Below the pieces are notes generated by a model. That model was not told the DNA's origin, made no database searches, and worked only from the letters and a program-made list of their open reading frames with translations. Positions 1 through 39,962 of a stretch of 64,000 bases of DNA are shown one piece after another. Where the stretch lies: contig OZ231126.1 in assembly GCA_965153355.1 (NCBI GenBank), positions 38,378,001 through 38,442,000 of the forward strand. The letters run 5' to 3'. This DNA comes from Flaccisagitta enflata. Lineage: Eukaryota. The position numbers were made by a program, and so were the translations under genes. Positions within the stretch are counted from its first letter, which is position 1. Every line of letters begins with the position of its first letter.

Positions 1-10
1 TAATTATGCG

Positions 11-1158
11 ATGTACGAGCATACTTCAGATCCTGATGATTGGGAAAAAGTCCATAAAGGGTTGGAGGCGGCGTTGAAGGAAGCTGGTGTCATGGGTGTG
101 ACGGAGGATTTGGGAGCGTTAAGAGGCGTGGTGTTGCGTCATCTAGCCGCCGACGCATCCGGCAGAGGCGTGGTTAACGGCGACGATCTCTCATGGGACT
201 ACGCCGGCGTGCCTGATCCGACAGCAACGACTTCCGGCGCCCCTGATCCGGCAGCGACGGCTACCGGCGCTTCTCGACCGGCAGCAACGACTTCCGGCGC
301 TTCTCCTCCGACAGCTTTGGCGCTCGGCGTTCCACTTCCGCCCCCGCCGACGTCTCGCGTCCCACTTCCGGCTGCGGCGTCGACGGACGTTCATCCTCCA
401 TCCGCGGCTGCAGACGACGCTCTTCCTCCTGATCCGGCGTCGTCGGCGGCACGTGCATCGGCATCTCCATCGTCCAACGGATCTGTGGAAATGGACTCGT
501 TTAGCGATACATCTACTCTCTGTCCTACACCAGAACCAAGTGCGGCAGTCTCTACTTTCGATATTCCGGATTCACCCCATCCAACGCCATCTCAGTGTCG
601 TACCCCCACCCCACTTCGTCCCCCATCGCGCCCACTGATTTCCTTGAATTAACTCAAACTGCTGCGCGATGTAAATCATAAAAACATCTGATGATTGGCG
701 GCGAAAAATCGCTTGTGTGACCATCCCAGCAACCATCCATGAAGGTTTCACCTTACCTTATGGCGCCTGTTACTCGCGTCGACTTTGCCACGCATACGAC
801 TACGCCGGTAAGGGCACGTTCTCCGTCACCCTGCCGAAGAACTTCCTCCTCCGTGTCTCCCGTCTCCACGTCCTTCCCCGCATCCTCACTCATCCTCCTA
901 CTTCGCATCTTTCCAGCATCCTACTCTCCTACTGCTCCTCATCATGCTCCTCACTCTTCGCCTACTGCTCCTCATCATGCTCCTCTTCCTGCTCCAGCGG
1001 CGCCGATTTTGCCGCCGGTTGCTTCAGCGGCGCCGATTTGCCGCCGGTTGATCCAGCAGCGCCGACCACGACGCACGTCTATTGGCCCCATTCGCTCTCC
1101 ATGGCGCCACCGCCGCACATGCAACTCACGACGATTCTCCACCACCGGAACCGCGTAA
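11..1158 (+). other. Pro/Ser/Ala-rich low-complexity ORFs upstream of the gag core (probable disrupted N-terminal gag extension or extra 5' ORF)
   Basis: ORFs 11-652 and 739-1158 are GC-rich and disordered. They contain ~30-bp repeats (GxPDPxATxx, ~200-310) and 27-bp repeats (SPTAPHHAP, ~920-985). No recognisable domain. Confidence 0.4.
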
Positions 1159-2380
1159 GCCACGCCCTCCAGGCCTAATGGAAGTAGAGGGTGTTGAGCT
1201 TATCCATTCGGACGACGGACATGTTTGCGGCGGTCATCCTGAAACTCATTTGATAGCAAAATTACTGAAATTTGTCAAACCCGAGTTTAAGTCCCAGGAA
1301 AAGATTGATGTCTATTTGAAAAAAAGAAGGAATTAATGAATTGCTTCAAGGCTACTTTTCCATCTGAAACCCTTTACACTTTGGTCAACATCTTCACATT
1401 GCAATGTGATTCTGAGCTTTGTTCTTACATTGAAGAATTAACCGCAAAGAAAAGTTATTTCACTTCTTTTGAAATGTTCCTACGTGAGTTTGAGGAGCAA
1501 GTCTACCCAAATTCACGTCAAGCCGCCTACACGCGCTTTATCAACAGATCAACCCCATCTGATGCCAAAATCGCAGTGGCATGGAAGCAATTCAAAGAAG
1601 ATGCCAGGTTGGTTAATTTGGACCCACTTGAGCACAACATGCTTTTCATTAGGGTATTCGCCATCGTGAGAAGAAAAAGGCGCTTGCAAAAATGGTTATC
1701 CACTAAAGACATGGATGAAGTTTTAGAAGAAGCAGTCTCCTTGGAATCTACTAGTGATATGATGAAATTGTGGGACCAAGAAGAAAAGGAAGGGAAAAGT
1801 AAACAAAAATCAAATGCCAGCAACAATGCTAACATCAATGCCATTACTGCATCGGGGAATGGTAAAGCGGGTAAACAGCAACAACAGCAAGGTCAACAGC
1901 AGCAGCAGCAACAACATCAGCAGCAAAATCAGCAAAATCAGCAGCAGCAGGACCAGTTGACTAAATCTCAAAGAAATAATCAAAAGAGGAAGGAGCAACT
2001 GAAGCTTGGCAAGCAGATGCAGAAACAGATGCAGGAGCAACAACAGCAGCAGCAGCAGCAACAGCAGCAGCGCCCTGCAGCAGCAGGGAGGTGGTAGGGG
2101 TGGAGGAAGAGGAGGAAGAGCGATTAGGGGTAGTGGAGGTGGAGGTGGAAGAGGAGGTGGAAATGCTGGTGGTGGTGGTGGTGGCAAGGATGGTGGTGTG
2201 ACTGTAGCAGCAAATGAAGTGCAGGAAGCAGCTACTAAGCAAAAACAATCAAACCAACCTGTTTCATCTGGATGGACGGGCCACTCTAGCCCAAAATTGA
2301 ATCTTCCGACCACTTTTATCTGCCATGTCCACCAATTCACAAACAACTTGATTCCACCGAACGAAGCTTTGAATAAATGA
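1082..2380 (+). pseudogene. gag: gag (capsid-like core, poly-Q, RGG-rich C-terminus), split over three frames
   Basis: Segments 1082-1336, 1336-2097 and 2006-2380 join across an A-run (~1320) and a CAG repeat (~2080). FTSFEMFLREFEEQVYP resembles retrotransposon capsid helices. RGG boxes follow the poly-Q. Lies immediately upstream of the protease. Confidence 0.7.
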
Positions 2381-5300
2381 CGACGTTCAAATCTCCACGC
2401 CCAATCTGCAAAATTTAAAGTGGAGACAATTTCTAATTCAGAGGAGGTGGGTGAGGTGGTGGTGACAGAGGAGGAGGAGGGGGGAGAGAAGGTGGGGGTG
2501 GACAATTCTAACTCTAATCATCACTCGTCATCTAATTGCCCGACTTTGAACATTTCATCTTCAACAAAAATTGGTGGAAAAAAATACTTTGTCACGGCCT
2601 GTTTGCCTAACTCTAAGCTTTTTACCGCGTTCTGTGACTCTGGGGCTGACGTCAGCGCGGTCAGTCCTAAGATGGTGACTGGTTTACCTTTGAGTTGGAG
2701 GAGCCGTTGGTGGTGAAGGGCTTCGATGGAAATCGCACCACAGCTATCACCCACAAAGTTGAACTCGAATTGAACTTTCACCCTGGGGGGTTGAAAGATT
2801 ACTTCTATGTTTGCGACGTTCCCCACGCTATTATTGGAAACGACATTCTCCAAAATGATGAGCACCATCTATCGCTGGAAACAGGAAAAAAGTTCTTTCA
2901 TATTGGCAGTGACATTATTTTTACCAAATCTTCGCCATTTTTGTCCATTTCTGAATACAAACGTCGGCGTCTCTCATCGGTTTCTAGCTACAGGAGAGCA
3001 TATAAACACCACTGTCATGGTCGAAATTGGGTTAGACTACTCCAGGATTACCGTCTTGAGCCAAATTCAATCACTATAGTGGAGGGGTATGTGGATAATT
3101 ACTTCGCTGACTCGCAAAGTTTCTTAAGTCTTTATGATGGCTCATATCTGAATGCGGCTGACTGTGGTCACATTTACATACCATCTCTTTCCTTCCCAGA
3201 TGGTAGGGAAAAGGCTTCAAATGGTCATGACACCCCGCTATTGATCCCTGTTGCAAATAATCTGACTGAGGCCAAAACTATGTCAACGTTGACTATCTTA
3301 GGTGAAATGGTTCGTCACTCAACTGATTCACAGCAACATGATGCCGAGTGTTATGATTTGAGGGAGTTGTTGGAGGAAATAGAAAGGAGGGAGCTGGTGT
3401 CTGGTGAAGATATGACCTGTAGATATGGTATCACATCCCCTTATGATGTATGCAATATTGACACTGATGAATTTTCAAATGTAAATAACCCTACCACTCC
3501 TACCAACCAACCCAACCAACCTACCACTCCTACCAACCATCCCAACCAACCTACTACCCTACCAACCAACCAAAATTTCACTCCCGCGTTTTCGTCCGAC
3601 ATTGATCATCCTCAATACACCCCTCCCTCCTCACCTGTGCCATTTTCATCACTTGTTGGGAAGAATAAGGTGGGTGATGATGTTCTCGACCGTTGCCGCC
3701 GGGATGGTATAGACTTTGACTTGCAATTGGATGACAAAAATGGACCCGATGTTGAAATGGAGATTCTTGAAGATATCGACATTGAGGCTGAAAGGAAAAA
3801 AGCAGATGATTGTCCTTACTGGAAAGATAAAGATTCTTTTTTTTCTGAATTCAACTTCAAAGATTTGGCCCAAGAGCATTTGGACCCACTCAAAGAACTT
3901 CTATTTTCGTTCCGTCACATTTTTGACTCTTCTGACCCTGCCCAATTCAGGCAGGGGATAAACATGAAACCAATCGAGATAAAGTTGAAACCTGGCATGA
4001 CCCCTAAAAAGCACAAACTTAGGCGTCTCTCGGATGAGAAAATTCGTCACCTCAAAATTCACCTTAAAACGCTTCTCGATCAAGGCGTCATCGCCGAATT
4101 GGACAGCAGCGCCGACGTCTACGCAAGTCCTTTGCATCTTGTCGTCGAACAAAGGTTCGTCAGTTCGCGCAACGCCGTGGTGGAAAAAAGTAGGGTAACT
4201 GCAGACCAGCGCCAATTGAATGCTTGTCTGGCTGACAGCTCCTTTCCGCTTCCAAACTGCAATGAATACCGTGAAAAAGTAGGAAAAATGGGTTACACCA
4301 CCTTTAGTAATTTCGATTGCTCGTCCTTCTTCCACCAGTTTCCGGTCTCAAAGGAAAGTTCTAAGTTGTTAGGCATTCACGCAATTAATAAGATCTATTG
4401 TTACCTTCGCTTATCTCAAGGCCTAAAACTCAGCCCACCTATTGTCCAAAATTTCATCAGCAAGGCCATGCGCTGTCATGAGCGCGTCTTTCCGTTCATT
4501 GATGACTGTTCAGTTGCTTCAGAGAATGTTCAACAGCATCTCTATGAAGATCTTCCCAAATTCTTCGCCCTCTGTTCCTACTATCGGATACTTCTTAAAC
4601 CTAGTAAGGCTGATATGGTCAGGAAATCGACTAGAGTCTTAGGGTTTCAAATTGGTGAATCTCAATTGTCAATATCCAAGGAAAAAGAGGTGAAAATTTC
4701 AGATCTTAAATTCCCGGTCACAAAAGATGAGTGTATCGCTCGCCTAGCCTTTCTGCAATACTTTAATGGCGTGGCGCCAAAGCTCAGTGAGCATTTAGCG
4801 CCATTACGCCGTTTGACTAAGTTAAAGGTAAGGTACACGCCCACTGACTTACACAGGGAGGCTTTTAACAAGGCCATAACTCACCTGCAAGATAAGAAAG
4901 TGAATGTCATTTGTCTTCCGTCTTCTGACCCTTCAGACCAGTTCGTGCTGTGGACAGATGCATCGTCAAATTCAATATCGTGTTTATTGACGCAATATAT
5001 GCTTCCTCCATCGTCTGCACCTGATAATGATGGAAAAAGAAGATTGTATGTGGTAGGGTGTTTTTCTTCAGTCATCAAGGACAGCTGGCTTAATTTTCCA
5101 ATATGGCTGCTCGAGTTGATCAGTCTTTACGAAGCTACTCGCAAATTCCGCCATCTGCTCAGTGCAAAAGCTTTTTGGGTGGTCGTTGATAGCTCTACAG
5201 TGGCTAACTGGGCCAGTCTTGAGGGTATCCCCAAAGACTTGGCCCGTAAGATCCTACACATACAGAAATTTCAGGCTAATATCGTCTTTGTTGAAAGTAG

Positions 5301-7285
5301 ATTGCAAGCTGCAGATCCATTCTCACGCTTAGAATCACTCCCAGCACCATCAGGCACTTACCCAAAATTTTTGAGGGAAAGGATCTACAACGCCCATGGA
5401 CAGAAGGTGCCTTGGCAATCACTCTTTTCCCAACGAAAACACGATGAAATGATCGCCTTTTTTCATCGCCATCGGAGACAGCCGTTATCATACGCCGTCG
5501 ACGGACCGTTGGAAGAGGAGGAGGAGGAGGAGGAGGAGGATGATTATGCTTCTAGACCCGACGGCGAATACACCATTGTCGTCGACGATCTTCCGGCGAC
5601 GCCGCCGGAAGTGACGCCCATCGCCGGCGCCATCGCGGCGATCCACACGTCGATTTGCGCCATATCTCTCGACGACGACAATTTGAATGCTGGAAGAGTG
5701 GAGGAGAATGATGATTCCCTGCCGGATAGTGACGTCATGGACAGTATCAAACTGCCGCGTTTTTCCGGAAGTCGATTGGATTTCGTGCGTCGCCTTCAAG
5801 CCGGCGACGATATTCTTGATCGTTGCCGAGACTTTTTGATGGGAACGACGCCGCTTCCAAACAAGGCTGAGGCTTTGTTATTACCGGCGCCGTTGCAAGA
5901 TTTCCTTCGCCATCGTTCGCTTTTCAAACTGACAGACCAAAACATTTTGATCAGATATTGGTTAAATCCGTTGGGCATCGTTGACCCACTTATTGTGGTG
6001 GGATCTAGAGAATTTTTGAAGCTTGTCGGCGAAACTCATTCATTCAACTCACCATCATCATCCGGTCACATTGGTCAAAGAAAAACCATGGATTCTCTCA
6101 AAAGACAGTACTATTCTTTCAACATGAGGCGGGTGATCAATTCTTACGTCCGTTCATGTCCCCAATGTGTGTTAAACAACCATCCCACCTGTAGGAAGGA
6201 AGACGATGGCAACAAAATCGCGACTGAGCCTTTATCGACCGTTGAAGTGGACGTGTGTGGCCCGTGGAACAATTTCAAGACCACTTCCGGCCGAACGCCA
6301 TCATACTTTGTCGCAATTGACGCGGCGTCTCGATTTGCGTTCACGTCAACGATATATTCGACCTCTGACGCCGAAATTCTTCGTTGTTTTCTCGATATGC
6401 GTCGCCACTTCTCCGGACTACCTTCAAAAATACAATGCGATAACGGGTTGCTGAAAGAAAACTCACGCACAAAACAATTTCTGATTTCGCATCACGTTTC
6501 GATCACACATGGACACGCGTACGTCAGCAGATCACAGTCCCGTGCTGAAAAAACTATCGGCACTATTTCTCGTCTCATCGTCAAATACAGAACCGAGTGT
6601 CCAAAAATTCCTTTTCCCCGTCTGTTAGAGGAATCCACGCTCACCTATAACGCATCTCCATGTGACGCTCTCCCCATGAATCTTTCCCCACGTGATCTCT
6701 TCTATGTGCGTCCTCCAACTTCGTTTCTTCGTTCTGCATCCGACGAGGTCGTCGACGGCGTCTCCAAATCGCTCGTCGACTGCGTCGCTGCTGCACGTGC
6801 CGCCGGCGCCGCGTCTCTCCAAAACGACGTGGCGACAGAAGAAACGATCTCCGACGAACTACACGCGCCGCCTCAAAAGCGGTGATTGCGTCTTAAAGAA
6901 ACGCTCTGTGTGGCCTGTCGGGACGCCGAAGAAATACGGCCACAGAGTGGTTGTGGACGGATTTGTGGTGGAAGAACGAGTCGCCACAAATGCCTTTAAG
7001 GTTCGAAGTGTCGTGACGAGTGAACATCAAATTCTCCCAGGTGACGTGTTGATCAAAACTAAACTCACTGAAGATGAGTTACGTCGCCTCGCGGACTCAA
7101 TGAATGTAAGTTTGGAACTGAGTGAGCCAGAGATTGAGCCAGCTTTAACGCGTTCTCGTGCCAGGGCATTGAATGATGATGCCTCGGTGAATTCCGTCGA
7201 AAAACTTTTCATCCATCATAGTGGAAAAAACAATTATAGTCTCGATTCACTTGTTGATTTTGGAATCTCTGATTTGTGGGTTTAG
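2381..7285 (+). pseudogene. pol: pol polyprotein: aspartic protease, degenerate dUTPase-like segment, reverse transcriptase, RNase H, integrase with SH3-like C-terminal domain
   Basis: PR FCDSGADVSAV...IIGNDIL (frameshift ~2693). RT YASPLHLV, FSNFDCSSFFHQ, LSQGLKLSP, FIDD. RNase H WTDAS/LLEL/VVVD/AADPFSR. IN H..GHIG..CPQC and VDVCGP/CDNG/SRAEKT. The C-terminus continues in ORF 6692-7285 after a frameshift near 6835. Confidence 0.92.
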
Positions 7286-7438
7286 TCTATTTTTCCATAT
7301 GATGATCAATTTTGAGTTTATAGGAAAGATGATTTTTTTATTTTTTTTGTTTTTTTGTATTTTTTTTAAGAAGTACAAAGTAGAAAGAAAATGAATAACC
7401 ATGATCATTTTACCATAAACTCGGATTACCCCTTAAAT

Positions 7439-7822
7439 TTAGATCCACACACTTCTTGCGGGCGCATCGTAGTGACCATTGTTATTTTGATCACGTTCAC
7501 GCATCTCTATAATTTCATCATCTGTAAAATTACGCGGAACACCATTACGGGGTGGTGGTAGTGGTGGGGTGCCGTTGCCTCTGTTCCTAACTCTTTCTCG
7601 CATCATTGAGAGAAAATCTTGACTTAGTCTCAGCAGGCGTTGAGCTAAGTCAGGATTTTTTATCCCAATGATGGCAAGAACGATTATTAGGACAAGGGCC
7701 CCGGCACTAATCAGCACTTCCTCCAACCAGTAAGGGTGCCCTGGGCTATAATGGGCCTGCTCAATTGTAGCATTCTCGGTCGCTGAGGGAGAATGGTTCC
7801 AATAACTCTCATTATAGCTCAT
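7439..7822 (-). CDS. Antisense 127-aa single-pass membrane protein inside the retrotransposon (FAST-like architecture)
   Basis: AAAATG start. ~35-aa N-terminus with sequons NES, NHS and NAT. TM VLISAGALVLIIVLAIIGI, then amphipathic/basic PDLAQRLLRLSQDFLSMMRERVRNR and PPLPPPR. Minus-strand AATAAA at 7342-7337. Confidence 0.7.
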   Translation of the reverse strand: MSYNESYWNHSPSATENATIEQAHYSPGHPYWLEEVLISAGALVLIIVLAIIGIKNPDLAQRLLRLSQDFLSMMRERVRNRGNGTPPLPPPRNGVPRNFTDDEIIEMRERDQNNNGHYDAPARSVWI

Positions 7823-8456
7823 TTTGCACGTGATTTTACAGACAAGTGTGCAGATATAAATTATCTATAGACGGAACAGCGACCACCTACCTTTAAATTT
7901 CTAAAAGAAAAGATTTTTAAACACTCAAACCCCCAAGAGAAACGAAACAAAAGGTGGAAACTAAAATGTTAAAAATGATAAAAACTTGCTTTTGCTGTAA
8001 AGAAATGATTAATCGAGTTATGTCATGTACAGAATTTTTTTATTTGCGATAATTCATTATACGCGGGTACAGTCTCACAAAAACTCTATCTGACTGTATC
8101 TACAATTTAATTGCCTTCTGTCTAAGTGTCTCGGTCTTTCACAAACAATTTTCATGACTGGGACGCTTTATTGTACATATTCGTTAGTAACGAGTCTCTT
8201 ATTCGCGGTGATTCGTTATATCAGTTTCTCACTGTATTCTAGTTTTTCTCTTTTTGACGTTCTTAATGTTGCCCTCACTCACTATGTGTCTGTTATGAAG
8301 CGCGCGCCGATCCTTTTTCTCTCCACTCCTCGGTTGTCCAATTTCGTTATCAGCGCGCCTTTTGTTTCCATCTGATGCATCCGATCCTGATCCTTATTGC
8401 GCAAAACGTCGATTTTGCGCCCATTTTGCGCATAAGTCGCGGGCCTTTTGTTTCCG

Positions 8457-8573
8457 TCAAACTCGATTCCTCCCATCGTCTCGATCGTCGTCGTTGTTTC
8501 TGTCGCGTCGAGGGCCTGGGAATAAAATGTAGTACACATTTTTTTTGAGCGGTGGTCGCTGGATATTTGCGTT

Positions 8574-8632
<59 letters not shown>

Positions 8633-9770
8633 TCTTTCTCTCTTTCTCTCCCTCTCTTCCTCTCTTCTCAATTTTTGGTTGAATTTTCAACGCTTTCTCT
8701 AAATATTATCCATTTTAGTCTCTCCATTTTCTCACGAATTTTAAAAATATTAACTACTGTTTCCCGGCCGGAAATATTTACTCATGTTCTATTTTGTCAA
8801 TGACAAAAATATTATTCTGCACACCTTTTTTTTTCCAAAAATATTACTCAAAAATATTAACCGTATTCACAAATATTATACTATAGTTACATCCGGATTC
8901 CCTTTCTGCGCAATTTTACCCCTCTTTCTCCCCCTCTCTCCCCCCACTCTGCTTTGCGGAAGTCAAAAATCAAGAAAGGGTGCGTTCTTTCGCCTCTGAC
9001 ACGTTCACACTGAGTTCACTTACTGACATAATGGTAGACTTTATGTCGGTTTTCTTCTTCTTCTTCTCTTTCCTTCGAGGTCGCTTGTTTCTTGCATCGT
9101 AATAGTCCTTGGATAATAACCGCCACAACGTTGGTGATAGTGATGCCGATGACGGCCCATGATTGGGTCTCCAGCTCATCTGTCTGTTCGTTGATTTGGT
9201 TATACTCCTTTCCGCACATTAGAGGTGACAGGACCAGATCGCTCCTCTCGAGGCATCGTGAGATGTGGAGCACGTCTTTTCCATTTTTGCCTTTGATGGG
9301 GCTAGGACTGATGATGATGAGACACGTTTTGCCATACTCTGTTGGTAGAGAAGATACAAAAAAAATTAAATTAAATTTCAGAAGTTAGTGTGAACGTTGT
9401 CGCTCCCCTCGGTGACTGTGGCGCCGATCAGATTAAATAATGCATAAAATTTTCTCACCGTATCCAAAATCGCGTATGACGGCTTGTTTCGAATCAAGTT
9501 GGCAATCGGGCTTTTCTGGACGCGTGCTCAACCATTGCACGATGCGTTGATTGAAATCGCCGTTGCTTTCTCCGTCTCGTTGTTGCGGGGTCTGTGAACA
9601 AAATTTTTGCGTTGGCCTTGAATTTTCTTCTTTTCAGCGAAGAAGGAAAGTTAGGGTAGGGTTAGATCACGAATCTGCTGAATTGGTTTTCTCACCTCTG
9701 ATTGGTCCGCTACGCTCCCCGGGAGGAGGAGGACGGAAAGAATGAAGAAGAGGAGGGGGTGATATCTCAT
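8457..9770 (-). CDS. Spliced antisense gene in the retrotransposon: ~193-aa type I membrane protein (signal peptide, 4-Cys ectodomain, TM, charged tail)
   Basis: Exons 9770-9696, 9591-9459, 9338-9024 and 8515-8457. Donors GTGAG, GTGAG, GTAAGT; acceptors ttttgttcacAG, ctaccaacAG, ttttattcccAG. Phases 0/1/1 are all compatible (582 nt). Protein MRYHPLLFFILSVLLLPGSVA...SWAVIGITITNVVAVIIQGLLRCKK...RNRV*. Minus-strand AATAAA at 8172-8167. Confidence 0.75.
9744..9759 (+). promoter_or_regulatory. Polypurine tract (plus-strand primer)
   Basis: GAAGAAGAGGAGGGGG immediately 5' of the TG that starts the LTR. Confidence 0.85.
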
Positions 9771-10218
9771 TTTCACGATTTGTCTGTTGTTCTCTTGTCT
9801 TCCACTCGAGGTGATTGTAACTTGTTTGTCAGTATCTCGTCAGTATCTTGTCAGTACTTGTCACTTTCACTACCACAACACGCACTTTGTTGATTTGAGT
9901 GGTCGAGGTGTTGAGGAGAGGTGAAGTGTTGATTTTTGCTTTCGGAGCGCAGAGTCCAATTTCTTGTACAGAATTTTGCGATTATGATTTTGATTTTGTC
10001 CTTTAACTTTCCGTCGGCGATTGTTATTGTTTTTCATAATGCGGAATGATTGTACTTCAATTTTCGGCGTGCCTCGAATGAAATGAATGACAGTGAATGT
10101 TTGAATCACGTGTTCCTTCGATTGAATGGTATGTTGAGAATTGTGTTCTTATGTTAAGTATGTTTGAATGAATGGTGGTTTTTCATCTCCGTAACACCTG
10201 GAGATTTTCCACATATCA
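9760..10218 (+). repeat. 3' LTR (right boundary tentative)
   Basis: TGATAT...ATATCA 6-bp terminal inverted repeat after the PPT. Three ~11-bp TCAGTA(T)CT(C/T)G repeats at ~9829-9860. A plus-strand AATAAA at 10491 means the LTR could instead extend to ~10571 (..GATCA). The 5' LTR is not in the window to confirm. Confidence 0.65.
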
Positions 10219-10626
10219 AAATTTTTTGATTTTTTTTTAGTTCCGTTCTTTTCTAAATTTTTCTAAGAATTTAGTTTTTAAACGTAACAATATTAGTCGA
10301 GGTCCGAGCTTTTTGTTTTCTAGACATTATCTTCACCTATCCTAAATAGATTGAGGATGATCTCTAGATAGCGTTGGCCGAGTCATGAACCGCTCGGTTC
10401 TGACCTTTGATATTATTATTATTATCAAATTCTCTCTGCCTCTCGCTTTTTGCATTGCTCGACTGCGATCCAATTTTCTCTTCAGTCTGGAATAAAGCCT
10501 CTTTCTTTTAGCTCAATTTCTTTCTCTTTCTCTCTCAATTAATGATAATTAAGAAGCTCAGAAATTGATCAAGGACAGATCTTTAGCCAGGACGGATGAT
10601 CATCATCCGGATGATCATTCGTTACT

Positions 10627-12665
10627 GCATGGTAACATGGACTTGCATAGCATGACGGCGATCATGGCGACATCGTGGATCGTGCTGTGGGGTTTTGCAT
10701 TTCACGACCGACCTCCTGACGGCATTCTGTTACGTGATTTTATTCGCCGGACAACTTGGCCATCTTTTTGCCGTTTCTGGTTGCGCTGTAGTTTTGGGTT
10801 ATGTATGTTGCTTGTGTTTCCACTGTGTTTGTGGTATTGCTTTTTCATAATTTCCGTCCGTCGTTGATGATTACGTTACTTTTATGCGTTAATAGGTTGG
10901 TTGGGTAAAAGGGTGGTTTTGTTTTTTTCACGTCATGCTGCCGTCGTCGTTCGCTATCATTTTCCCTGCATTAGCCTGCGTTCGTGCCCTTGCATGGGTC
11001 CATTTTTTTTTGCCCCCCCCCCCTGGTTTTCGTTCTTACATGCGGTTGTGCTAATAGTATTTTGGGTTAGTGGCCACTTTGGCGTGTGTTATTTATTCCC
11101 CCCTCCCCACCCTGGCCGCTTTGTGATGGATTTTTGTCTGATATTGTTGGATTGATTTCTCTCAACTGATGGCCCATGTGGTGCGCGCGCCTCGGGTCCC
11201 TGCTTTTGTTTCTTACCTGGGGACATGGGTTTGGATGTGTTTATCCATTTAGGCTTTAGGTTAGTTTTAGCTGACTACACACACAAACGGGATTGATGAC
11301 TAAAGTCCAGCCTGTATTTGCCTGGCCCAGTGCCAAACCACACGGGCAAGGACTCATAGCGAACACTGCTTACACGCATACCGTTAGCCGGGGGTTTGGA
11401 TCTCAGTCAGCTTGGTGCGTTTGCTCTGCACATCTCGCCATATCACTGAGGGGCTCAGGTTTAGGTTTAGGCTTCGATTTTTGGAGGTTTAGACGCCGAG
11501 GACGTCGTCTTCGTGAGAGGGGGAGTAACTGTGGTACGGGGACCTCTGCCTCGGGCTAGCTCACTGCTACGTTTTCTATGTTTTTCTTTCTTTTAACGTG
11601 GCATCATCTTCCATTTGCCCAGGGCTTGCTATCGTGAACATGCGTTCAACATCACAAATGGGCGTGCTAACATGGACGCGCATTACGTGGCCTCTTCCTT
11701 GAGCATGGTAACCTGGACTTGCATAGCATGACGGCGATCATGGCGACATCGTGGATCGTGCTGTGGGGTTTCGCAATTCACGACCGACCTCCTTACGGCA
11801 TTCTGTTACGTGATTTTATTCGCCGGACAACTTGGCCATCTTTTTGCCGTTTCTGGTTGCGCTGTAGTTTTGGGTTATGTATGTTGCTTGTGTGCCTACA
11901 AGCTTATCACACTGTTTCCACTGTGTTTGTGGTATTGCTTTTTCATAATTTCCGTCCGTCGTTGATGATTACGTTACTTTTGTGCGTTAATAGGTTGGTT
12001 GGGTAAAAGGGTGGTTTTGTTTTTTTCACGTCATGCTGCCGTCGTCGTTCGCTATCATTTTCCCTGCATTAGCCTGCGTTCGTGCCCTTGCATGGGTCCA
12101 TTTTTTTTTGCCCCCCCCCTGGTTTTTGTTCTTACATGCGGTTGTGCTAATAGTATTTTGGGTTAGTGGCCACCTTGGCGTGTGTTATTTATTCCCCCCT
12201 CCCCACCCTGGCCGCTTTGTGATGGATTTTTGTCTGATATTGTTGGATTGATTTCTCTCAACTGATGGCCCATGTGGTGCGCGCGCCTGGGGTCCCTGCT
12301 TTTGTTTCTTACCTGGGGACATGGGTTTGGATGTGTTTATCCATTTAGGCTTTAGGTTAGTTTTAGCTGACTACACACACAAACGGGATTGATGACTAGA
12401 GTCCAGCCTGTATTTGCCTGGCCCAGTGCCAAACCACACGGGCAAGGACTCATAGCGAACACTGCTTACACGCATACTGTTAGCCGGGGGTTTGGATCTG
12501 TCAGCTTGGTGCGTTTGCTCTGCACATCTCGCCATATCACTGAGGGGCTCAGGTTTAGGTTTAGGCTTAGATTTTTGGAGGTTTAGACGCCGAGGACGTC
12601 GTCTTCGTGAGAGGGGGAGTAACTGTGGTACGGGGACCTCTGCCTCGGGCTAGCTCACTGCTACG
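10627..12665. repeat. Near-identical ~950-bp direct duplication (10627-11571 and 11703-12665)
   Basis: The two copies align along their length with few substitutions. Copy 2 has a ~20-bp extra segment near 11894. Confidence 0.95.
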
Positions 12666-13339
12666 GGTCCTTCTGCTCTCTTGCTCTGGCTATCACTACC
12701 TTGCCTCCTCAGCTTCTCCTTCCTCCTGATTGGCTGTTGCTCTCTCTCTCCTCTGCTACCTGCTTCATCTTCCCCGTTTGCTCTGCTCTTCCTTCCTGAC
12801 TTTTGCATCCCTGGTCTAGCAGCTGGCAGAGGCTTCCCCACCCATTTCCTAGGACACACCTCTCACTTCTGCTCTTTTATAAGGACCAGTGGTCGGAATG
12901 ACCATGTCCCTTGAGCATTTAGGGCATCCCTTGAGTCTTCCCCCCCCTTTAGCAGTCATGACAGCGAGCTGCCTTTGCTCTGCTTAAGTCAGCTCATTTC
13001 ATGGGGATTCTAGGTCTTGATATATTTCCCTTTTGCCTAGACTGAGGTTTGGCAGGACACTTATACCCGCGGGCCCTTCTCAGGTCTTCCTTCTTTAGGC
13101 AGGGCAGGGTCATCTTGGCAGGCGACTTTCTCTTTTGGTTCCCTTTTGGGCATTCTCCACTGACCCCCTCTTTTCCCGTTATTATAATATGAAATACAAA
13201 TACTATCGGCGGAATGTTTCATGTGATATTAGGATGAAAAATTGAACTATCCCTTGGTTGGTGCTATACGTATTTCCTAGGTAGTAGTCAAACGGCATTG
13301 TCAAACGGCATTGACAGCAGAGGCGCTGATTGTGTAGCA

Positions 13340-13955
13340 CACTGTGCATTTAAAACAATTCTGAGTGAAAAGTCACATAACTGGGTTTTTCTGCAGTTTT
13401 GTATAGTACTGGAGTGTGATGACATATATATAGCAGAAATAAAATCATTCCCTGAGCGCTTTTTGAGAAATCATAAAAATAAAAGAAAATAAAAACCATT
13501 TTCATTGCTGATTCTACTGAGTTGCATTGACTCATATTCTGATTATAAATTATTAATTCTTACAAAATTCCATCTGATTTGATAGGTTACACTCTATACT
13601 TCTGTAAACAATCAAAGTTTTCATTTCTTGAGCCACCATTACATTTTCGAAACGGTAACAAAAAAAAAATAAAAACTTAAATTCTTTACAAAAGTATACA
13701 ATGCAACCTATCAAATAAAAGAGAATTTTGCAAGGATTAACGATATGGAATAAGAAAATGAGTCAATACAACTTAGTAGAATCTACATTGAAAATGGTCA
13801 AAATTTTTTTATATTTTCAAGATTATTCAAAAAGCGCTTGGGGAATGATTTTAATTTTGCTTGATATATAATTTTTTACACTAATACTACAAAAAACTGC
13901 TGAAAACCCCACAGTTATGTGAATTTTCACTCAGAATTGTTTTGAAAGCGCAGTG
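13340..13955. mobile_element. MITE with long imperfect TIRs (CACTG...CAGTG)
   Basis: CACTGTGCATTTAAAACAATTCTGAGTGAAAAGTCACATAACTG matches the reverse complement of 13910-13955. Inverted similarity extends ~200 bp. No clear TSD. Confidence 0.75.
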
Positions 13956-14059
13956 GCTGATTAAGGACATGCTGATAAATGTTCTTTATGAATGAATGAA
14001 TGAAAGCATGAATGAATGAATGAATGAATGCATGAATGAATGAATGAATGAATGAATGC

Positions 14060-14553: not shown

Positions 14554-15127
14554 TAGGGATGCAGAAGCGGAAGATTTTTGGACCGCTTCCGCTTCCGCTT
14601 CCAAAAGGCATATTTGAGAATTGACAGCTTCCACTTCCGCTTCCGCTTCCACCATTTCAAAAAGCATAGCTTCCGCTTCTGCTTCCGCTTCCACCCTTTT
14701 AGAAGGCATAGCTTCCGCTTCTGCTTCCGCTTCCGCTTCCACATTATTGAGAATTTCACTATAACATTTATTTAATTATGTAAAATGTTTTTTCATGTAA
14801 AAAAAGAGAGGGGATAAAACAAGGAAATATAAAAGATAATAGAAAAAATGTTGATGACATAGATTTGATATAATTTTTTTGCTGTCACTAGTTATTGCAA
14901 TGAGTTTAAATAATCATTTTGTCTTTATTTATTTATTTATATATTTATTTATTTACATATTCTATACCTTTCAATAATCTTTGAAATCATTTTTTTCTTA
15001 AATTTGTATATTTGTTTAAAACATCATTGGATCATCTATGTGCTTTTTTTTTCTTAAAATTTATGAAAACAGGTCTTAAGGTGTATGAGTATTGCTTTTT
15101 TCCAATTAACCAAACAACTGTGAATAA

Positions 15128-15200
<73 letters not shown>

Positions 15201-15240
15201 AAAAAAGACAGACAGAAAGATCGATAGACAGACTGAGAGT

Positions 15241-15333
<93 letters not shown>

Positions 15334-15340
15334 AAAGAGC

Positions 15341-15402
<62 letters not shown>

Positions 15403-15816
15403 AAGGGAGAGAGTGAGTGACTAAAAGACAAACAGACAGAAGTAGATATATACTCAGACAGAAAAAAGTAAGATAAAGCCAAAGAAGAATAAAAGGATAG
15501 ACCACAGAGCGAAACAGATGAAGGAAAAATATACAAAAGCAATGAAAAAAAATAACACCAAGAGAAGAAAAGAAACAAAAAATGAATGAATTATACTAAA
15601 ATAAGTATGATTAAAACTGACATGATTATTGTCAAAATATTGTCAGAATCTGAAGCGGAAGCGGAAGCGCTTGATTATGTCCGCTTCCGCTTCTATTAGG
15701 CATCGAAAAAAGTTTTCGCTTCTACTTGATTTCAAAATTGCGCTCCCGCTTCCGCTTCCATGCTCAAACTACCGCTTCCACCCGCTTCCGCTTCCGCTTC
15801 CGCTTCTACATCTCTA
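14554..15816. mobile_element. Non-autonomous hAT element with GAAGCG/CTTCCG subterminal repeats
   Basis: TIR TAGGGATGCAGAAGCGGAAG / CTTCCGCTTCTACATCTCTA. Perfect 8-bp TSD GCGAGAAC at 14546-14553 and 15817-15824. Confidence 0.9.
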
Positions 15817-16389
15817 GCGAGAACGCTCATAAAAATAGAATTAAAAAAAAAAGAGCCTTTTGTATGAACAATTCTGAATTCTTTTTCATTCACTCATCCG
15901 ACGCTTTACAAAGATAAAGATTGCAACTTACTCTTATCTAGCAGTAGCAACTCGATTCTGCGACAATCTTTTGTTTTCTCGCTCAATATTGACAATGACA
16001 GAGATGAGGGAGGGGCAGTGGGAGGGGAAGAATGCAAATGAGAGAGGGAAAAAACGAGAGAAAAAAAAAACAAGCAAAAAACAAAAAAGCAAAATCAGAA
16101 GAAAAGAGATGGAAAAGAACAAGGCCAACACCTTACAGTCGCGTGCGGTTGTTAAAGCCATAAGACCAAAAGCCTTAAAGACTAAAAAGACTTTGCGATT
16201 AAAAGACAAAAACACTAAAAGTAGATTGTCTTGAAATACCTTAAAACGACTTAAAACGACGTAAAATGACAAAAAAAAAGCTATGTGTGACAGACGCACG
16301 GACCAACAGCCGGACAGAGTGGGTCATAGAGTCACGTGCACGCGACCTAAAAGGACTCCTTTGAAGCTCCCATCGATTCATATACGGTA

Positions 16390-16733
16390 CGTCCCGTGAA
16401 GCGCCCCAAACTTTGACTATGGCTCTCACCAATCTTACCACAGTTGAGGCTTGGTAAAAAAACATTCCATGCAAAATTTTGGGTCTCTGAGATAGCGGGA
16501 ACCTTCGTCAGGGTGAGGTTGAAGTTTGTATTGAATTCGCATTGGAATCAATATTTCTATTATGCAAATTTTATCTTTGCCATAGGTTTCTATGGAAACT
16601 TCATGGTCACCCTGACAAAGGTTCCTGCTGTTGCAGAGGCCTGAAATTTTGCATGGGATATTTTTTTACCAAGCCTCAACCATGGTAAGATTGGTGAGAG
16701 TCAGCGTCGAAGTTTGGGGCGGTTCATGGGACG
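16390..16733. mobile_element. Tc1/mariner-type MITE
   Basis: TA|CGTCCCGTGAAGCGCCCCAAACTT...AAGTTTGGGGCGGTTCATGGGACG|TA with long inverted arms. Confidence 0.85.
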
Positions 16734-17238
16734 TAATATACGGTAATTAGACAGAGAGAGGAGTGGCGGCAATTTGAAGATCTGCTCCACAATACGATGG
16801 GTACGGGCAGTATCTGTTGTTGGAGAGTTTTCAGTGTGAGTAAAGTCCAATACTCCCACCCTGGTTTGTTGGAAAAAAGTCGAATTACGTAATTCGACTT
16901 TTTGAAACGTAGGGGAGAAATCGGGTTTTCCATTTTCGATTTGAGGAACTTTAGGAAGTTGAGCCATTTCCTGCCTGGGATGATACATTTTTTGATATTC
17001 ATAGCTAAGAAAGAGCTTATTTTTCTCTTTCAAATGGCGCCAACCAGAAGTCTCTATGATCATTAGTTCTGGCGCTATGATTTTTTTAATCTTTTTTTAT
17101 TTTTTCGCATTTTAGCGAAAATCGAGATTTTTTATTTATCTTATTTTTTGGCCCCTATGTAACATTACAGAAGAGTCAGGATGTTACATAAATTGACCCT
17201 GAGTTTTATGACGCTAGCTTTTGCATTTTATTCTGCTT

Positions 17239-19215
<1,977 letters not shown>

Positions 19216-21622
19216 ACGGGGGAATCCCCTTAGTGAGACGATTTTTTTCCCTTAAGTGAGACACCAAAAAATTCCCTCCAGTGAGACCAAAAAAAATGTC
19301 TCACTTGAGGGAAAAAAATGTAGTCTCACTGGAGGGAATTTTTTCTCACTAAAATTCCCATTTTTTCTCACTAAAATTCCCTCTAGTGAGACAAAAAAGG
19401 AGGAAAGTGGAGGAAATTCCCCCCAGTGAGACAAAGCAAAGGAAATAGCAGATACTCATAACAGGAGTCTCCCTCTTTCCACTTACAACAAGATGGCGAG
19501 AGTCGTGTGCTCATTTTTGCAACTACACATCTTCCCTCACCCATTCCTCCCATCCACCCTTCCTACCATTTCAACCTCCCTTACATCCATTCCCTACTTG
19601 GTTTAGACCTTCCTTCCTTCCTTCTTTTTTTTCTTTTGTTCCTCCCTTTCCTCCCTTTTTTCATTTCTTCCTTCCTTCTGGACGGATGACCTATGCTTTC
19701 ACATTAGATTCGACGGATGCATTTGTTAATTCCTTCTTGCCGTTTCTCCCTTTCTGCCTAACTTCCTTCTTTCCTTTCAATCCAACCCTCCTCCCTTTTT
19801 CAGCAGCGACCTTAAAAGGCCAATGCACTGTAGCAAACAAAGGTGAATTTCAAGATGTCTGTCCCTCCATCCAAAATCACCTCTGTCATGCTTGTAGTAA
19901 GCCATCTCTTGTCTAAAAGTTGCCCTCTCAAGCCTCTTATCTGACCTTTCTGGCTTCAATCTTGCCTTCAGATTACCCTCTCAAGCCTCGAATCTGCCCT
20001 CATGCATCATATTGGCTCTCTTATGAGGCTTCAAGTCAGCCGCTGGATGCCTCATATTTGCCCTGTAAAAAATCAAATCAATCCTCCATAGTGCCCTCTT
20101 AGGAAGTCTGGTAATTCCCCCCCTGTGTCCTAAAGGACATTGGTCCTTTGGGGCCGCTGCCCTGCTCTCACTCAATTTCTGCAGCTCATTACTCAAAGCA
20201 GGGCATCTGGTGCCGCTGAACATATTCGATCAGTAGATGACTAGTTTCCATTGCTCCATTCCTTCCTCCAATTCCTCCCTTTCTTCTTTCTTCCTTCCTT
20301 CAATTCCTACCTTCCTTCCCTCCTCCCATTCATCCCTTCTTATCTTACCTCCATTCCGTCTTCCCTTTCTTTTATTCATTCCTTCCGTCCTTCCTTCTTT
20401 CCTTCCCTTCCTTCATTCTATCTTTTCCATTCCTCCCTTCTTTCCATTCTTTCCTTCCTTTCTTTTTTCCTTCTTGCCTTCAATTTTTTTCTACCTTCCT
20501 TCCTTCCTTGCATTCCTTCCTTCTTGCCATCCTTCCATTCCTCTCTTTCTTCCTTACTTCATTCCTTATTTTTTTTTCTTTGCCTTTAAACAGATTGAAT
20601 TGTCCAAAATTTGATAGTATTTGAGACAGACGGACAGTCAAATAGAGGAAAATGACTGACCAACTAACCAACATAGTGTAAAGTCGCGTGCATTCGAGTG
20701 AAAATGAGAAGAATCATCCTATTGTAAGAATTTAAAGAAAGCCCCATCGAAAGCGCTGTAGTATCATTTGAGAAAAAAACATCAGATAGCTACTCTGGTT
20801 GTTTTCTTTAGGAGCAAAGAAGTGATTAGTGTGTTAAGCCCATGGAGAGGTTAGCCCGATTCTAGATTCCTCATGAAAGAGACAATTGATTTCCCGACAA
20901 AGGTGTCGGCCTTGTGACCAAAAAAAAAATTTATCCCCAAAAAAGCGGGAATCATCAACATCCAACGTTGGCAATTACCATTCTCTTTCGCCCTTTTTGA
21001 GCAGTGGTGAAGTGGCCATTGACCTACACTATCTTTTTCTTTTTCTTTTTCTTTTTCTTTTTCTTTTTCTTTTTCTTTTTCTTTTTCTTCTTTCTTCTTC
21101 TTCTTCTTCCTACCCCCCTCTTCGCCGCTCCAAAGTCTTGAGGCTGAAATCATAGTTTGGCATTCTAAACAGGTATCGGCTACCATCCAGATGGATAATG
21201 AGAAGTTGATGAGGTGGTGAAGGCTCACCCAATGTCTTACTCCAAATCTTTTCCCTACCCGATTATTGTCACTAGATCCTCGCTTTTTTCTCTCTCATAC
21301 CTGGCCCGAAATGTAATCCCCAGTCGATTCTTGACACTGGGTTCACATCTTTTGCTCTCACTCGCTTACATTCTTCTACATTTCACTCTCACTTTCTCTC
21401 TCAATCTCTCTCTTTTTCTCTTTCCTTTTTCTCTTTCCTGTTTTCCTTTCTCACTAAAGGGAAAAATTAGTCTCACTAAAGGGAAAAATGATGGTCTCAC
21501 TGGAGGGAATTTTTTCTCACTAAAATTCCCTCCAGTGAGATTATTTTTTTGTCTCACTAAAGGGAATTTTAGTGAGAAAAAATTCCCTCCAGTGAGAAAG
21601 TCGCACTAGGGGTACCCACCTG
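19216..21622. mobile_element. Probable non-autonomous hAT-like element with AGTGAGA/TCTCACT subterminal repeats
   Basis: Imperfect TIR (GGGGGAATCCCCTTAGTGAGAC vs GTCGCACTAGGGGTACCCACC). Clusters of CCCTCCAGTGAGA at both ends. GAGAGACAC flanks both sides. Confidence 0.6.
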
Positions 21623-21820: not shown

Positions 21821-36085
<14,265 letters not shown>

Positions 36086-38015: not shown

Positions 38016-39194
38016 TTTTCATAGTACTATCTTGGCGGAAAGAAACGCGACAGTTGTTAAAAGTAGTATCAACTTTGAAATGGTGCTGCTCCTAAACGAA
38101 TAAAGGTTAAAAGGTCTGTGTCAAATCTTCAAAATGAGACCAAGTTGAAGTATTCATCTTTATTCGTTTAAGCGTAGCACTTTTCTAAAGTGGATGCTAT
38201 TTCAAGCCACTGTCGCGTTTCTTTCCGCCAAGATAGTAAATAACATAAGATCAGGCAAGCTACTTTTTTTAGTTGCGGACACGCAACTCTATAGGAGGCT
38301 TTGTCCGTCCGTCCGTCCGTCGGTCCGTCCGTCGGTCCGTCCGTCCGTTGGTCCGTAACCATCGAGTCGAAAAGTGGGAAAACGCGCATTTCCGCCCCTG
38401 CCCACCCGTCCGCAAATGATGGCCGTGTATCCGGCCTTGTTTATTATGGTTAACTTTCATCATTTAATGATAGCTGCGGAAAGCGCTGTTTGAAGCCACT
38501 GCAATATTCAAATGAAGTTGTTGCAAACAATCTCGTCAGTCCTTCACTGTTTGTCTTTCAAAAACAATATCCGATTTCTTGTATTATATTCCGCTTCATT
38601 GAATGAAAGACTCTTACATCTAAAGAGGAAGAAGGATTACTGCGTGATTTCTCGGAACTGCTGCATCGATAACGATGAGGGTGTCTCTTACCCCCGATCG
38701 TAAATCGATGTGTCCTCGTTTTTATATGAACATATATTCGAGCCACAGCTTCCCCCCTTGGGTTTTTGCCCCCCTTTCGTCCATCTTGACCCACCAAACA
38801 CGAAACTGAACATCCAGATGGTGGACAAAAGTGAAACGTCGGGTCATCCGTTGGCTTCACGACGGGCACGTAGAGCGAGTAACCAACCATCGGCCAAACT
38901 ACGGCAGTTGCTCCCCGAGCTCCCCCTCGAACAGCCTCGACAGACCCCGAGCTACCCCGCGCTACCCAGAGAGTAGCCCCATGATGCGTCCGAGTGACGC
39001 AGCTTGTCGTTGGTGAACCCCCTGGCGGGAAGACGATCCATAAAGCGGGGGGACGGGGGGTCCGTGAATATCCATCCGGATTTCGATTCGAGTGGAAACT
39101 TGATTGACATTGATTCAAGCAACTTGAAATGACAATTCATGTAAATTTCCTTTAGAAGCCGAGGGAGTCATACAATCCGAAGGATGACAGGAAG

Positions 39195-39281
<87 letters not shown>

Positions 39282-39423
39282 GGACAGCCTGACTGACGGG
39301 GAAACAGACTGGCGGACAGGAGGGGAAAAACAAATAGGAAAGAAAGAAGAAAAGAAAGGAAAATTGAAGGAAAAAAGGAAAAAGATGAGAGAAAGAAAGA
39401 GAGTAAGAAAGAAAGAAAGAAAG

Positions 39424-39458
<35 letters not shown>

Positions 39459-39461
39459 AAA

Positions 39462-39526
<65 letters not shown>

Positions 39527-39527
39527 G

Positions 39528-39650
<123 letters not shown>

Positions 39651-39962
39651 ATGAAAGAAAGAGGAGAGAAAGAAATGAAAGAACGACGGAAAGAGGGAGA
39701 GACGGAAAAAGGAATCAGTCGCTTAGTCAAGGCAGGAAAGGGAGAGCGAGGGATTTTCCGACTGACCGCGCCTTCAGGGGGCGCCAAGTACTCTTGGATC
39801 AGATTCTTATCGCCGGAATAGTTTGTGTTACGCAACATTAACTCAGAACAGAAAGAATAAAAGTAAATGAGAGAGTGAACGAACATCCGACTCAACTTCA
39901 ATAAACTCTTCTACATGAACTTCGATTAATCCCTATTAACCTTCTACTGACCCGCGCTGAAT

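Follow-up and report, generated by a model that had tools for sequence, protein, structure and literature searches.

A conserved antisense gene for a predicted small membrane glycoprotein in a high-copy Ty3/Gypsy-type unit of Flaccisagitta enflata

Background

The route by which retrotransposons that carry no envelope gene (env) reach the germline or new cells was opened to experiment only in 2025, with the sORF2 protein of Drosophila. sORF2 is a FAST-like transmembrane (TM) protein of approximately 70 amino acids (aa) encoded by Gypsy elements of the MDG1 group; it is found at the protrusions that carry capsids into the oocyte, and it has been linked to the transfer of capsids from the soma to the oocyte (10.1101/2025.03.14.642691). 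It is described as stable and under purifying selection in drosophilids in a 2026 PNAS article (PMC13486581). Here we examine a 64,000-nucleotide (nt) stretch of the genome of Flaccisagitta enflata (assembly GCA_965153355.1, contig OZ231126.1, positions 38,378,001 to 38,442,000 of the forward strand), which we call the window and whose first letter is position 1. It contains a Ty3/Gypsy-type gag-pol unit and, on the opposite strand downstream of pol, an open reading frame (ORF) of 127 codons, hereafter ORF127, whose predicted product has a layout that recalls sORF2.

The FAST proteins of reoviruses (p10, p13, p14, p15 and p22) have fewer than 200 aa, are of membrane topology type III, and combine an ectodomain of less than 40 aa with a disordered, motif-bearing tail. 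Their ectodomains need myristate and/or exposed hydrophobic residues and rise approximately 1 nm over the bilayer; the tails of p14, by a YVNI motif that binds Grb2, and of p22, by a PxxP motif that binds the SH3 domain of intersectin, couple to actin (10.1101/2020.06.03.130740). The p14-V9T variant, which gains one functional glycan, is non-fusogenic (PMC3979892). A screen of arthropod Repbase entries by Voichek et al. returned 105 candidates of 63–107 aa, all in forward orientation and all selected for the pattern MGxxxS/T (10.1101/2025.03.14.642691). Because this pattern and an arthropod entry were required, the screen could not have found the family that we describe here.

Antisense ORFs located between pol and the 3′ long terminal repeat (LTR) are known from plant Gypsy elements, namely gene23 of Grande (maize) and those of RIRE2 (rice), Retand (Silene) and PvRetro13; some of their products are nuclear, and the ORFs are suspected to be captured genes, while the antisense transcripts of the retroelement micropia have no coding capacity (PMC7264820). 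The small TM ORFs of rotifer elements are forward ORF3s (PMC5408684). Our searches of the open-access literature and of bioRxiv, PMC13524379 included, found no metazoan element of the Gypsy type with an antisense gene for a membrane protein.

ORF127 resembles sORF2 in that each is a small single-pass protein, N-out by prediction in the case of ORF127, from an env-less Ty3/Gypsy-type element, with an ectodomain of approximately 30 aa and a cytosolic amphipathic motif; in each case the ORF is conserved among copies, and a role in the cell-to-cell transfer of capsids is proposed. The comparison is one of layout. The differences are several: ORF127 is antisense and downstream of pol, whereas sORF2 is forward and upstream of gag (in Lepidoptera, 7 of 22 consensus sequences have it behind pol); it has 127 aa instead of approximately 70 (range 63–107); it lacks MGxxxS/T and a Tyr behind the TM, has a weak basic patch and carries conserved glycan sequons; and its host is a marine animal and not an insect. 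With the FAST proteins ORF127 shares the small size, the predicted type III topology, the short ectodomain and the disordered tail with its motifs, but it has no acylation site and no strong polybasic motif, it has conserved sequons, and it is encoded by a retroelement and not by a double-stranded RNA (dsRNA) virus. The plant antisense ORFs have the same position and orientation relative to pol and occur in most copies, with an own promoter shown for Grande; their hosts are plants and the products that were studied are nuclear, whereas ORF127 predicts a membrane protein, no sequence relation between them is known, and the LTR was not located here.

A conserved gene on the strand opposite to pol

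ORF127 is very probably a real, conserved coding gene. The original prediction, made from the sequence alone, had described an intact 127-aa ORF convergent with pol, and this ORF is indeed present on the minus strand, complete from ATG to TAA; its stop codon (7439) and that of pol (7285) are separated by 153 nt. The ATG has an A at −3 and an in-frame stop upstream of it at 7867 (-), and the AATAAA attributed to the gene is found at 7342–7337 (-), 97 nt past the stop codon. The size of the ORF alone is not beyond chance in this window, which has 52 stop-to-stop ORFs of at least 130 aa between 8000 and 64000, mostly over microsatellites. What places ORF127 beyond chance is that its frame is the sole open one of the six over 7439–7822, the other five having 6–14 stops each, and that it recurs in conserved form in 45 protein clusters from elsewhere.

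A first protein search returned 18 clusters of relatives (59–97% identity, 108–131 aa), four of which have 44, 46, 75 and 11 member sequences, and a wider profile brought the family to 45 clusters at 22–97% identity, all from ENA or Logan assemblies, none of them named and none with a Pfam domain. Start, length, the single TM, the motifs of the tail and a hydrophobic C-terminus are kept across the 45 clusters. A profile built from 34 clean sequences and run over 1.84 billion representatives without length limit matched 12 proteins at E<=1e-3. Of these, eleven belong to the family and have 71–150 aa, so that no fused or longer form appeared; the twelfth (P0080, 220 aa) is a repeat protein and was judged spurious.

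Among the 70 proteins of the close family, 61 start with M[SG]YN, 66 end with SVW[IM] and 65 are 123–131 aa long; 58 are distinct full-length sequences, and a few have frame-shifted tails, as expected of decaying copies. The alignment of 34 close-family sequences has 52 invariant columns out of 127. These include the ectodomain aromatics Y3, Y7, W8 and W32, the juxtamembrane and amphipathic residues K55, P57, L59, A60, R62, L63, R77 and R79, the prolines P87, P90 and P91, and, near the C-terminus, Y118, D119, A120, P121, S124, V125 and W126. In the distant subfamilies P91 is also invariant and P87 nearly so, and T100 and D101 do not vary in any of 26 diverse sequences, with E106 near-invariant. 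The 58 full-length sequences require 285 changes by parsimony with a dispersion index of 3.77, and where a Poisson model predicts 13.5 columns without change there are 52, the parsimony counts being inflated by recombination between subfamilies. The slowest segment is the T-D-D-E motif (0.71 changes per column), the C-terminus having 0.9; the TM columns change fast (3.0 per column), and yet 0 of their 1102 residues are charged.

At 22–50% identity the sequences are still collinear in their start, N-terminal sequon, TM, Pro-rich stretch, T-D motif and C-terminal pair. The distant members also keep an acidic ectodomain of 30–38 aa, the amphipathic helix and P-R-N-x-T-D-D-E-x-I-E-M; they retain a hydrophobic or aromatic residue behind the first sequon and carry [RK][RKQ]-N-L-E after the TM. 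The C-terminal pair, [WYL][IVLM], is found in 46 of 51 family sequences.

Two further observations concern the variants themselves. The family proteins P0001–P0070 look mosaic, their N-terminal, TM and tail blocks recurring in differing combinations, a pattern to be expected if element subfamilies recombine. Four of the 70 close-family proteins are extended in frame at their start by MKLRAK.

The repeated gag-pol unit

ORF127 sits in a high-copy gag-pol unit of the Ty3/Gypsy type that is at least 8.5 kb long. Contigs that match positions 1–8570 number 3245 in the host-labelled DNA run X7 and 295 in the metagenome X1, with 30 of 30 bins covered in both, and in X1 the contig depths are alike over pol and over 7892–8255 (52.6–65.3). 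It is because the whole of 1–8570 is high-copy with like depths that we place ORF127 inside the repeated unit.

The main pol ORF of the window (3280–6885, +) has reverse transcriptase, RNase H and integrase domains according to Pfam, and intact sibling pol proteins map onward to 7282–7285, past the end of this ORF at 6885. One such sibling, P0143 (1615 aa, from a cluster of 71), has weak RVP, RVT_1, RNase H, Integrase_H2C2 and rve matches and aligns by tblastn to 2462–2692, 2689–6912 and 6833–7282 at 97–99% identity. Since P0143 maps in three frame segments, the pol of the window copy carries two frame changes; ORF127 is intact although the pol of the same copy is broken. The 193-aa ORF that the original prediction had treated as a separate accessory protein, and as a possible partner of ORF127, turns out to be the C-terminus of pol in another frame, and three pol proteins at 39–45% identity read through the same region. 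The claim that the element is env-less holds as far as 8570: the plus-strand frames of 7286–8570 are closed by 19–23 stops, and there is consequently no env-like ORF between pol and 8570.

The 64-kb window contains no other copy, and a repeat search of 6900–10600 gave nothing useful. Positions 1–2320 are also high-copy and include a P/A/S/T-rich open frame (2–652); the 5′ part of the window copy differs from most sibling contigs by several 1–2-nt length changes. The start of gag probably lies upstream of the window, gag being fragmented in this copy. Upstream of ORF127 on the same strand, and in the same repeated unit, there is an 85-aa ORF (8282–8539, -; stop-to-stop 8282–8686) which adjoins a (CT)47 array at 8576–8669 and has no Pfam match.

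Predicted topology and layout of the protein

All the sequence features that had been described for the protein are found again. The N-terminus is not like a signal peptide, as no 19-residue window before residue 28 exceeds 1.0 on the Kyte-Doolittle scale; three N-terminal sequons are present, at N4, N9 and N17; residues 36–54 are the sole hydrophobic segment, hence a single TM helix; and the amphipathic helix (57–79) with its Arg-rich patch RERVRNR (75–81), the PPLPPPR motif (86–92) and the C-terminal SVWI are all as described. The hydrophobic moment is maximal, at 1.8, in windows beginning at residues 58–59.

The product is probably an N-out glycoprotein, judging from the sequences of the family. 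The N-out/C-in topology is predicted on the grounds of the positive-inside rule and of the sequons: across 51 family sequences the N-terminal part has 0–2 K/R and 3–9 D/E in nearly all, and the 15 residues past the TM have 2–5 K/R. In ORF127 these 15 residues contain three K/R and two D/E, K55 being followed by N-P-D-L-A-Q-R-L-L-R. The predicted ectodomain has 35 residues in ORF127 and 30–38 in full-length members of the family. The ectodomains of 11 subfamily representatives, which are relatives of one another and not independent draws, contain 21 sequons against 5.05 expected, a number reached by none of 20000 shuffles; all 11 have a sequon starting at residues 2–5, something that single shuffles manage in 1.5–11.5% of cases. 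A sequon begins within the first five residues in 45 of the 51 family sequences.

Two AlphaFold2 (AF2) runs concur on helices at residues 31–55, 57–79/82 and 101–113, and in both of them the two termini and the Pro-rich linker are disordered. Sequence and structure databases gave no relative. The best Pfam match of ORF127 has an E value of 0.033, under the curated cut-off, and in a scan of 14 family members no Pfam family matched more than one; a search of the PDB sequences with the family profile gave as its best match a designed repeat protein (E 0.082); and the ESM Atlas returned leads below 0.9 only for the whole of ORF127, and no usable match for the tail alone.

Expression

Part of 6900–8400 is present in 20 of the 24 runs listed, which are marine metagenomes and a coded organism, and the five RNA runs contain 16–46% of the sampled words of this region. 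Over 7151–8294 the contigs of the metatranscriptome X9 add up to depths of 27.7, 75.6, 60.8 and 17.2, with a further 11.7 upstream of ORF127 after the bins of 60.8 and 17.2, and over the pol segment 3719–7150 to 0–4.9; the DNA run X1 is level over the two regions, with 33.6–130.8 over the four ORF127 bins and 56.7–158.1 over pol. The RNA contigs of X9 are thus enriched approximately 15-fold or more over the ORF127 region relative to pol, but summed contig depth is a poor gauge of expression, and contigs carry no strand information, so that this enrichment may stem from either strand. The enrichment over 7151–8294 fits a separate transcript of approximately 1 kb, and ORF127 is probably expressed from a transcript of its own.

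The idea that this transcript would be spliced from an antisense promoter in the LTR, with acceptors near 7865 and 7901, was not borne out: the RNA contigs have no spliced joint near either position, and self-BLAST in the window located no LTR. A joint from 7555 to 7629, which skips 73 nt, was considered as an intron and rejected; it occurs in a DNA contig as well as in an RNA contig and therefore reflects a variant copy.

Possible functions

The explanation that we favour, and to which we give an even chance when it is taken as a whole, is that ORF127 would be a selectively maintained accessory gene of a Ty3/Gypsy-type family, lying on the opposite strand directly downstream of pol, and that its product would act as an adaptor anchored in a host membrane. 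The product would be a type III single-pass glycoprotein, with its N-terminus outside, its C-terminus inside and no signal peptide, carrying one to three N-glycans on an acidic ectodomain of 35 aa studded with aromatic residues. The TM helix, conserved in its hydrophobicity only, would be followed by a kinked amphipathic helix running along the inner leaflet and by a mostly disordered tail with a Pro-rich stretch, the T-D-D-E-x-I-E-M motif, an aromatic-aliphatic pair at its very end and a Tyr motif, which reads YDAP here and YxN in one subfamily. This tail may recruit host cortical or trafficking proteins of the SH3, SH2 or PDZ type at a membrane site, possibly with coupling to actin, and the recruitment would serve the trafficking of the element's capsids or their passage from cell to cell. 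The job would then be the one proposed for sORF2 in insects, performed by recruitment instead of by a membrane-disrupting ectodomain of the FAST type.

We prefer an anchored adaptor to a channel or an enzyme because the best-conserved parts of the protein are the cytosolic motifs and the extreme termini, and not the TM; the adaptor mechanism, taken by itself, is a tentative proposal. We take the PxxPxR of the tail to be a class II SH3 ligand pattern, H-Y-D-A-P to be an SH2 ligand of the YxxP or pY-D type, and the terminal aromatic-aliphatic pair to be either a PDZ ligand similar to class II or a di-hydrophobic signal for export from the endoplasmic reticulum. Other candidates were dropped: a dileucine signal, as position 104 is variable (by eye), and FFAT and LIR motifs, as position 99 is not aromatic in the distant subfamilies. 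The late domains PPxY, PTAP and YPxL are absent from the tail, again by eye.

Membrane proteins that use such tails are known, p14 and p22 with their actin-coupling motifs among them. A36 of vaccinia virus and Tir of enteropathogenic Escherichia coli have disordered cytosolic Tyr and Pro motifs for SH2 and SH3 adaptors, and these adaptors (Nck, Grb2 and intersectin) nucleate actin for cell-to-cell spread (PMC9333988, PMC10883800). The segments EEHI-pY-DEV of Tir and TEHI-pY-DSV of A36 bind the SH2 domain of Nck (PMC9333988). Compared with their common HI-pY-D-E/S-V, the H-Y-D-A-P of ORF127 is a short motif match without homology, and hence a putative ligand.

Several observations weigh against the adaptor and against the maintained accessory gene of which it is a part. 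PxxPx[RK] is present in 25 of the 51 family sequences and absent from the other 26; YxxP is limited to the main family, and one subfamily has Y-x-N at the position of the Tyr. The tail motifs are short and degenerate, and the ligands that we assign to them are presumed. The tail contains a sequon of its own, N98-F-T, present in 34 of 34 sequences, which would contradict the topology if it were glycosylated, and the confidence of the two AF2 models is low (mean pLDDT 58.1 and 60.6). The protein database holds called ORFs only, so that broken copies are under-sampled, and two scans of metagenomic contigs and one of viral contigs returned pattern matches only and no relative; conservation was judged on proteins. 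As for the element, no listed contig spans 7325–7448, because contigs break at the T/A-rich tract, and in other copies ORF127 is linked to pol by depth only; when contigs from the ORF127 and pol clusters were compared by length, none of the 15 pol members listed, out of 71, had a counterpart. Self-BLAST of 1–14000 against the window showed no LTR pair flanking the element, and since no LTR was found, a position of ORF127 ahead of the 3′ LTR is only presumed. Regarding expression, the limits of the X9 depths given above count here as well, and the host polyA RNA run X24, approximately 6/100 of which was read (12.2 million records), had no read on 3719–8570; its 64 reads matching 1–8570 are all partial and below 95% likeness.

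The adaptor explanation has a more specific form, which we regard as doubtful. The ORF127 family would be what carries env-less Ty3/Gypsy elements of marine invertebrates from one cell to another; evolved independently of sORF2, N-glycosylated and transcribed antisense from its own promoter, it would recruit actin or junctions by its tail instead of relying on an acylated fusogenic ectodomain. With an antisense promoter of its own, ORF127 could be switched on apart from gag-pol.

The first alternative is the one suggested by the original prediction, namely that ORF127 is a minimal fusogen of the FAST or sORF2 type which, pushed by actin, would merge the membranes of neighbouring cells by its short ectodomain on behalf of an env-less element. 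The FAST-like layout proposed there stands in part: ORF127 has 127 aa and a predicted N-out/C-in topology, and its ectodomain of 35 aa and its one TM are followed on the cytosolic side by an amphipathic helix and a Pro-rich tail, but it has neither the acylation site nor the strong basic patch. The invariant aromatics of the ectodomain and the env-less region from pol to 8570 are in line with a fusogen, the PxxP and Tyr motifs of the tail are akin to the actin-coupling motifs of p22 and p14 (10.1101/2020.06.03.130740), and sORF2 provides a precedent in Gypsy elements (10.1101/2025.03.14.642691). The original prediction itself had called the likeness architectural only, given the missing myristoylation Gly, and we found no sequence relation to a Pfam family or a PDB chain.

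On the other side, the protein starts with MSYNES and not with MGxxxS/T. Two of the 70 close-family proteins do begin with MG (MGYNET), but a Tyr follows, and the usual myristoylation pattern excludes Tyr after MG. The juxtamembrane basic cluster is weak, with one to three basic residues behind the TM; the Arg-rich RERVRNR sits 20 residues away from the TM, so that ORF127 lacks a juxtamembrane polybasic motif of the FAST type. There is no Tyr directly behind the TM either, that place being taken by K55-N56-P57. ORF127 is antisense, whereas the insect candidates are forward in 105 cases out of 105 and have 63–107 aa (10.1101/2025.03.14.642691). Last, the N-glycan sequons of the ectodomain are conserved, which weighs against a FAST mechanism because a single added functional glycan renders p14 non-fusogenic (PMC3979892). 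A fusogen of the FAST type is thus unlikely.

We consider it improbable that ORF127 is instead an accessory protein similar to a viroporin or a modulator of receptors, comparable to M2 of influenza or Vpu of HIV, which would oligomerise in secretory membranes to change the ion balance or remove a host surface factor. As a matter of fact, M2 of influenza A and NB of influenza B, like ORF127, have no signal peptide, a very short ectodomain, one TM and an amphipathic start of the tail, and NB is reportedly glycosylated at Asn3 and Asn7. The amphipathic helix of ORF127 directly follows the TM of a predicted type III single-pass protein, and the acidic T-D-D-E motif of its tail is presumably a context of the casein-kinase-2 type, like the phospho-motif of Vpu. 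Flu_M2 appears in the look-alike list of the protein language model at 0.85, as a lead only, since this Atlas score does not reach 0.9 and the recognition value, 1927, falls short of the 2300 reached by 91 of 100 proteins of known families. ORF127 has no Pfam match to Flu_M2 or to any other family, and its TM is among the least conserved segments, with no conserved polar residue that could line a pore.

An equally improbable explanation is that ORF127 is a host-type gene, captured by the repeat or lying within it, that serves the host or nobody, its conservation resulting from a host function or from recent copying. The own AATAAA and the good start context, the enrichment in RNA relative to pol and the intactness of the ORF in a copy whose gag-pol is broken are compatible with this, and captures are suspected for the antisense ORFs of plants (PMC7264820). 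It must be noted, however, that the window copy is only approximately 1–3% from its siblings, so that the intactness of 384 nt says little. ORF127 also belongs to a high-copy unit, with many mosaic variants per subfamily in clusters of 44, 46, 75 and 33 members, and none of the 45 clusters comes from the annotated proteomes of NCBI or UniRef, or is named.

It is hardly credible that the functional product of the locus is an antisense RNA without coding role, which would regulate the element by giving rise to dsRNA or small RNA while the ORF is incidental, or that the ORF is due to chance: non-coding antisense transcripts of retroelements such as micropia are known (PMC7264820) and the window has many ORFs of similar length, but start, stop, length and motifs are kept at the protein level down to 22% identity, the rates differ strongly from site to site with a strictly hydrophobic TM, sequons are enriched, and the other five frames are closed.

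Turning back to the membrane-anchored adaptor, the family indicates that small proteins of predicted type III topology are kept by Gypsy-type elements outside insects too, in the opposite orientation and with an ectodomain that is predicted to be glycosylated. Should its role lie in the transfer or trafficking of the element, spread without env would have a longer and more diverse history than is known at present, and ORF127 would be a compact, motif-rich protein with which to test how an anchor and short tail motifs move capsids between cells. Otherwise it would still be the first conserved antisense membrane-protein gene of a metazoan Gypsy-type element found in our searches of the open-access and bioRxiv literature.

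Features of the window

Table 1. Coordinates of ORF127, of the segments of its product and of the gag-pol unit in the window
Feature	Positions	Strand	Remarks
Gag-like ORF, 253 aa	1336..2097	+	Gln-rich end; within the same repeated unit as pol
pol, Ty3/Gypsy-type (PR-RT-RNaseH-IN)	2462..7285	+	Three frame segments, two frame changes relative to intact 1615-aa siblings; Pfam and tblastn
193-aa ORF, C-terminal part of pol	6704..7285	+	Residues 1466–1615 of P0143 at 98% identity
A-rich tract (T-rich on +)	7333..7368	-	Candidate polyadenylation region; sibling contigs break at 7325
ORF127, complete coding sequence	7439..7822	-	127 codons, ATG to TAA; small membrane-protein gene (very probable)
Y-D-A-P-A-R-S-V-W-I, residues 118–127	7442..7471	-	Conserved Tyr motif and hydrophobic C-terminus
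P-R-N-F-T-D-D-E-I-I-E-M, residues 96–107	7502..7537	-	Best-conserved motif of the family; AF2 helix 101–113
P-L-P-P-P-R, residues 87–92	7547..7564	-	Fits PxxPxR
Juxtamembrane K55-N-P kink and amphipathic helix, residues 55–79	7586..7660	-	Arg-rich end RERVRNR; AF2 helix 57–79/82
TM helix, residues 36–54 (VLISAGALVLIIVLAIIGI)	7661..7717	-	Kyte-Doolittle mean 3.08; AF2 helix 31–55, block pLDDT up to 88
Predicted ectodomain, residues 1–35	7718..7822	-	Acidic, 0 K/R and 5 D/E; both AF2 models leave it disordered
Region upstream of ORF127 on the minus strand	7823..8570	.	Within the repeated unit; covered by metatranscriptome contigs

The remainder of the window contains other repeats. Two direct repeats at 10627–11571 and 11703–12665, of approximately 950 nt and 96% identity, are 132 nt apart (self-BLAST match of 967 nt, 10627–12665); they may represent a tandem duplication or else flank a very short element as its LTRs, and they are unrelated in sequence to the Gypsy unit. 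A long imperfect palindrome of 630 nt occupies 13336–13958, with 77% identity to its own reverse complement. Arrays of (CT/GA)n, (CA/TG)n and related microsatellites on the kilobase scale are found at 15000–19300, 22100–22700, 23300–23800 and 39150–39900, and give rise to long spurious ORFs, which reach 690 aa. At 29119–31518 (+) there is an open frame of 799 aa that has a reverse-transcriptase domain (RVT_1, E 1.1e-28) but lacks an integrase; it probably belongs to a non-LTR retrotransposon of the LINE type. Last, a 334-aa open frame at 62999–64000 (+), which runs off the end of the window, has several hydrophobic stretches and no Pfam match; it may be an exon of a host membrane protein.

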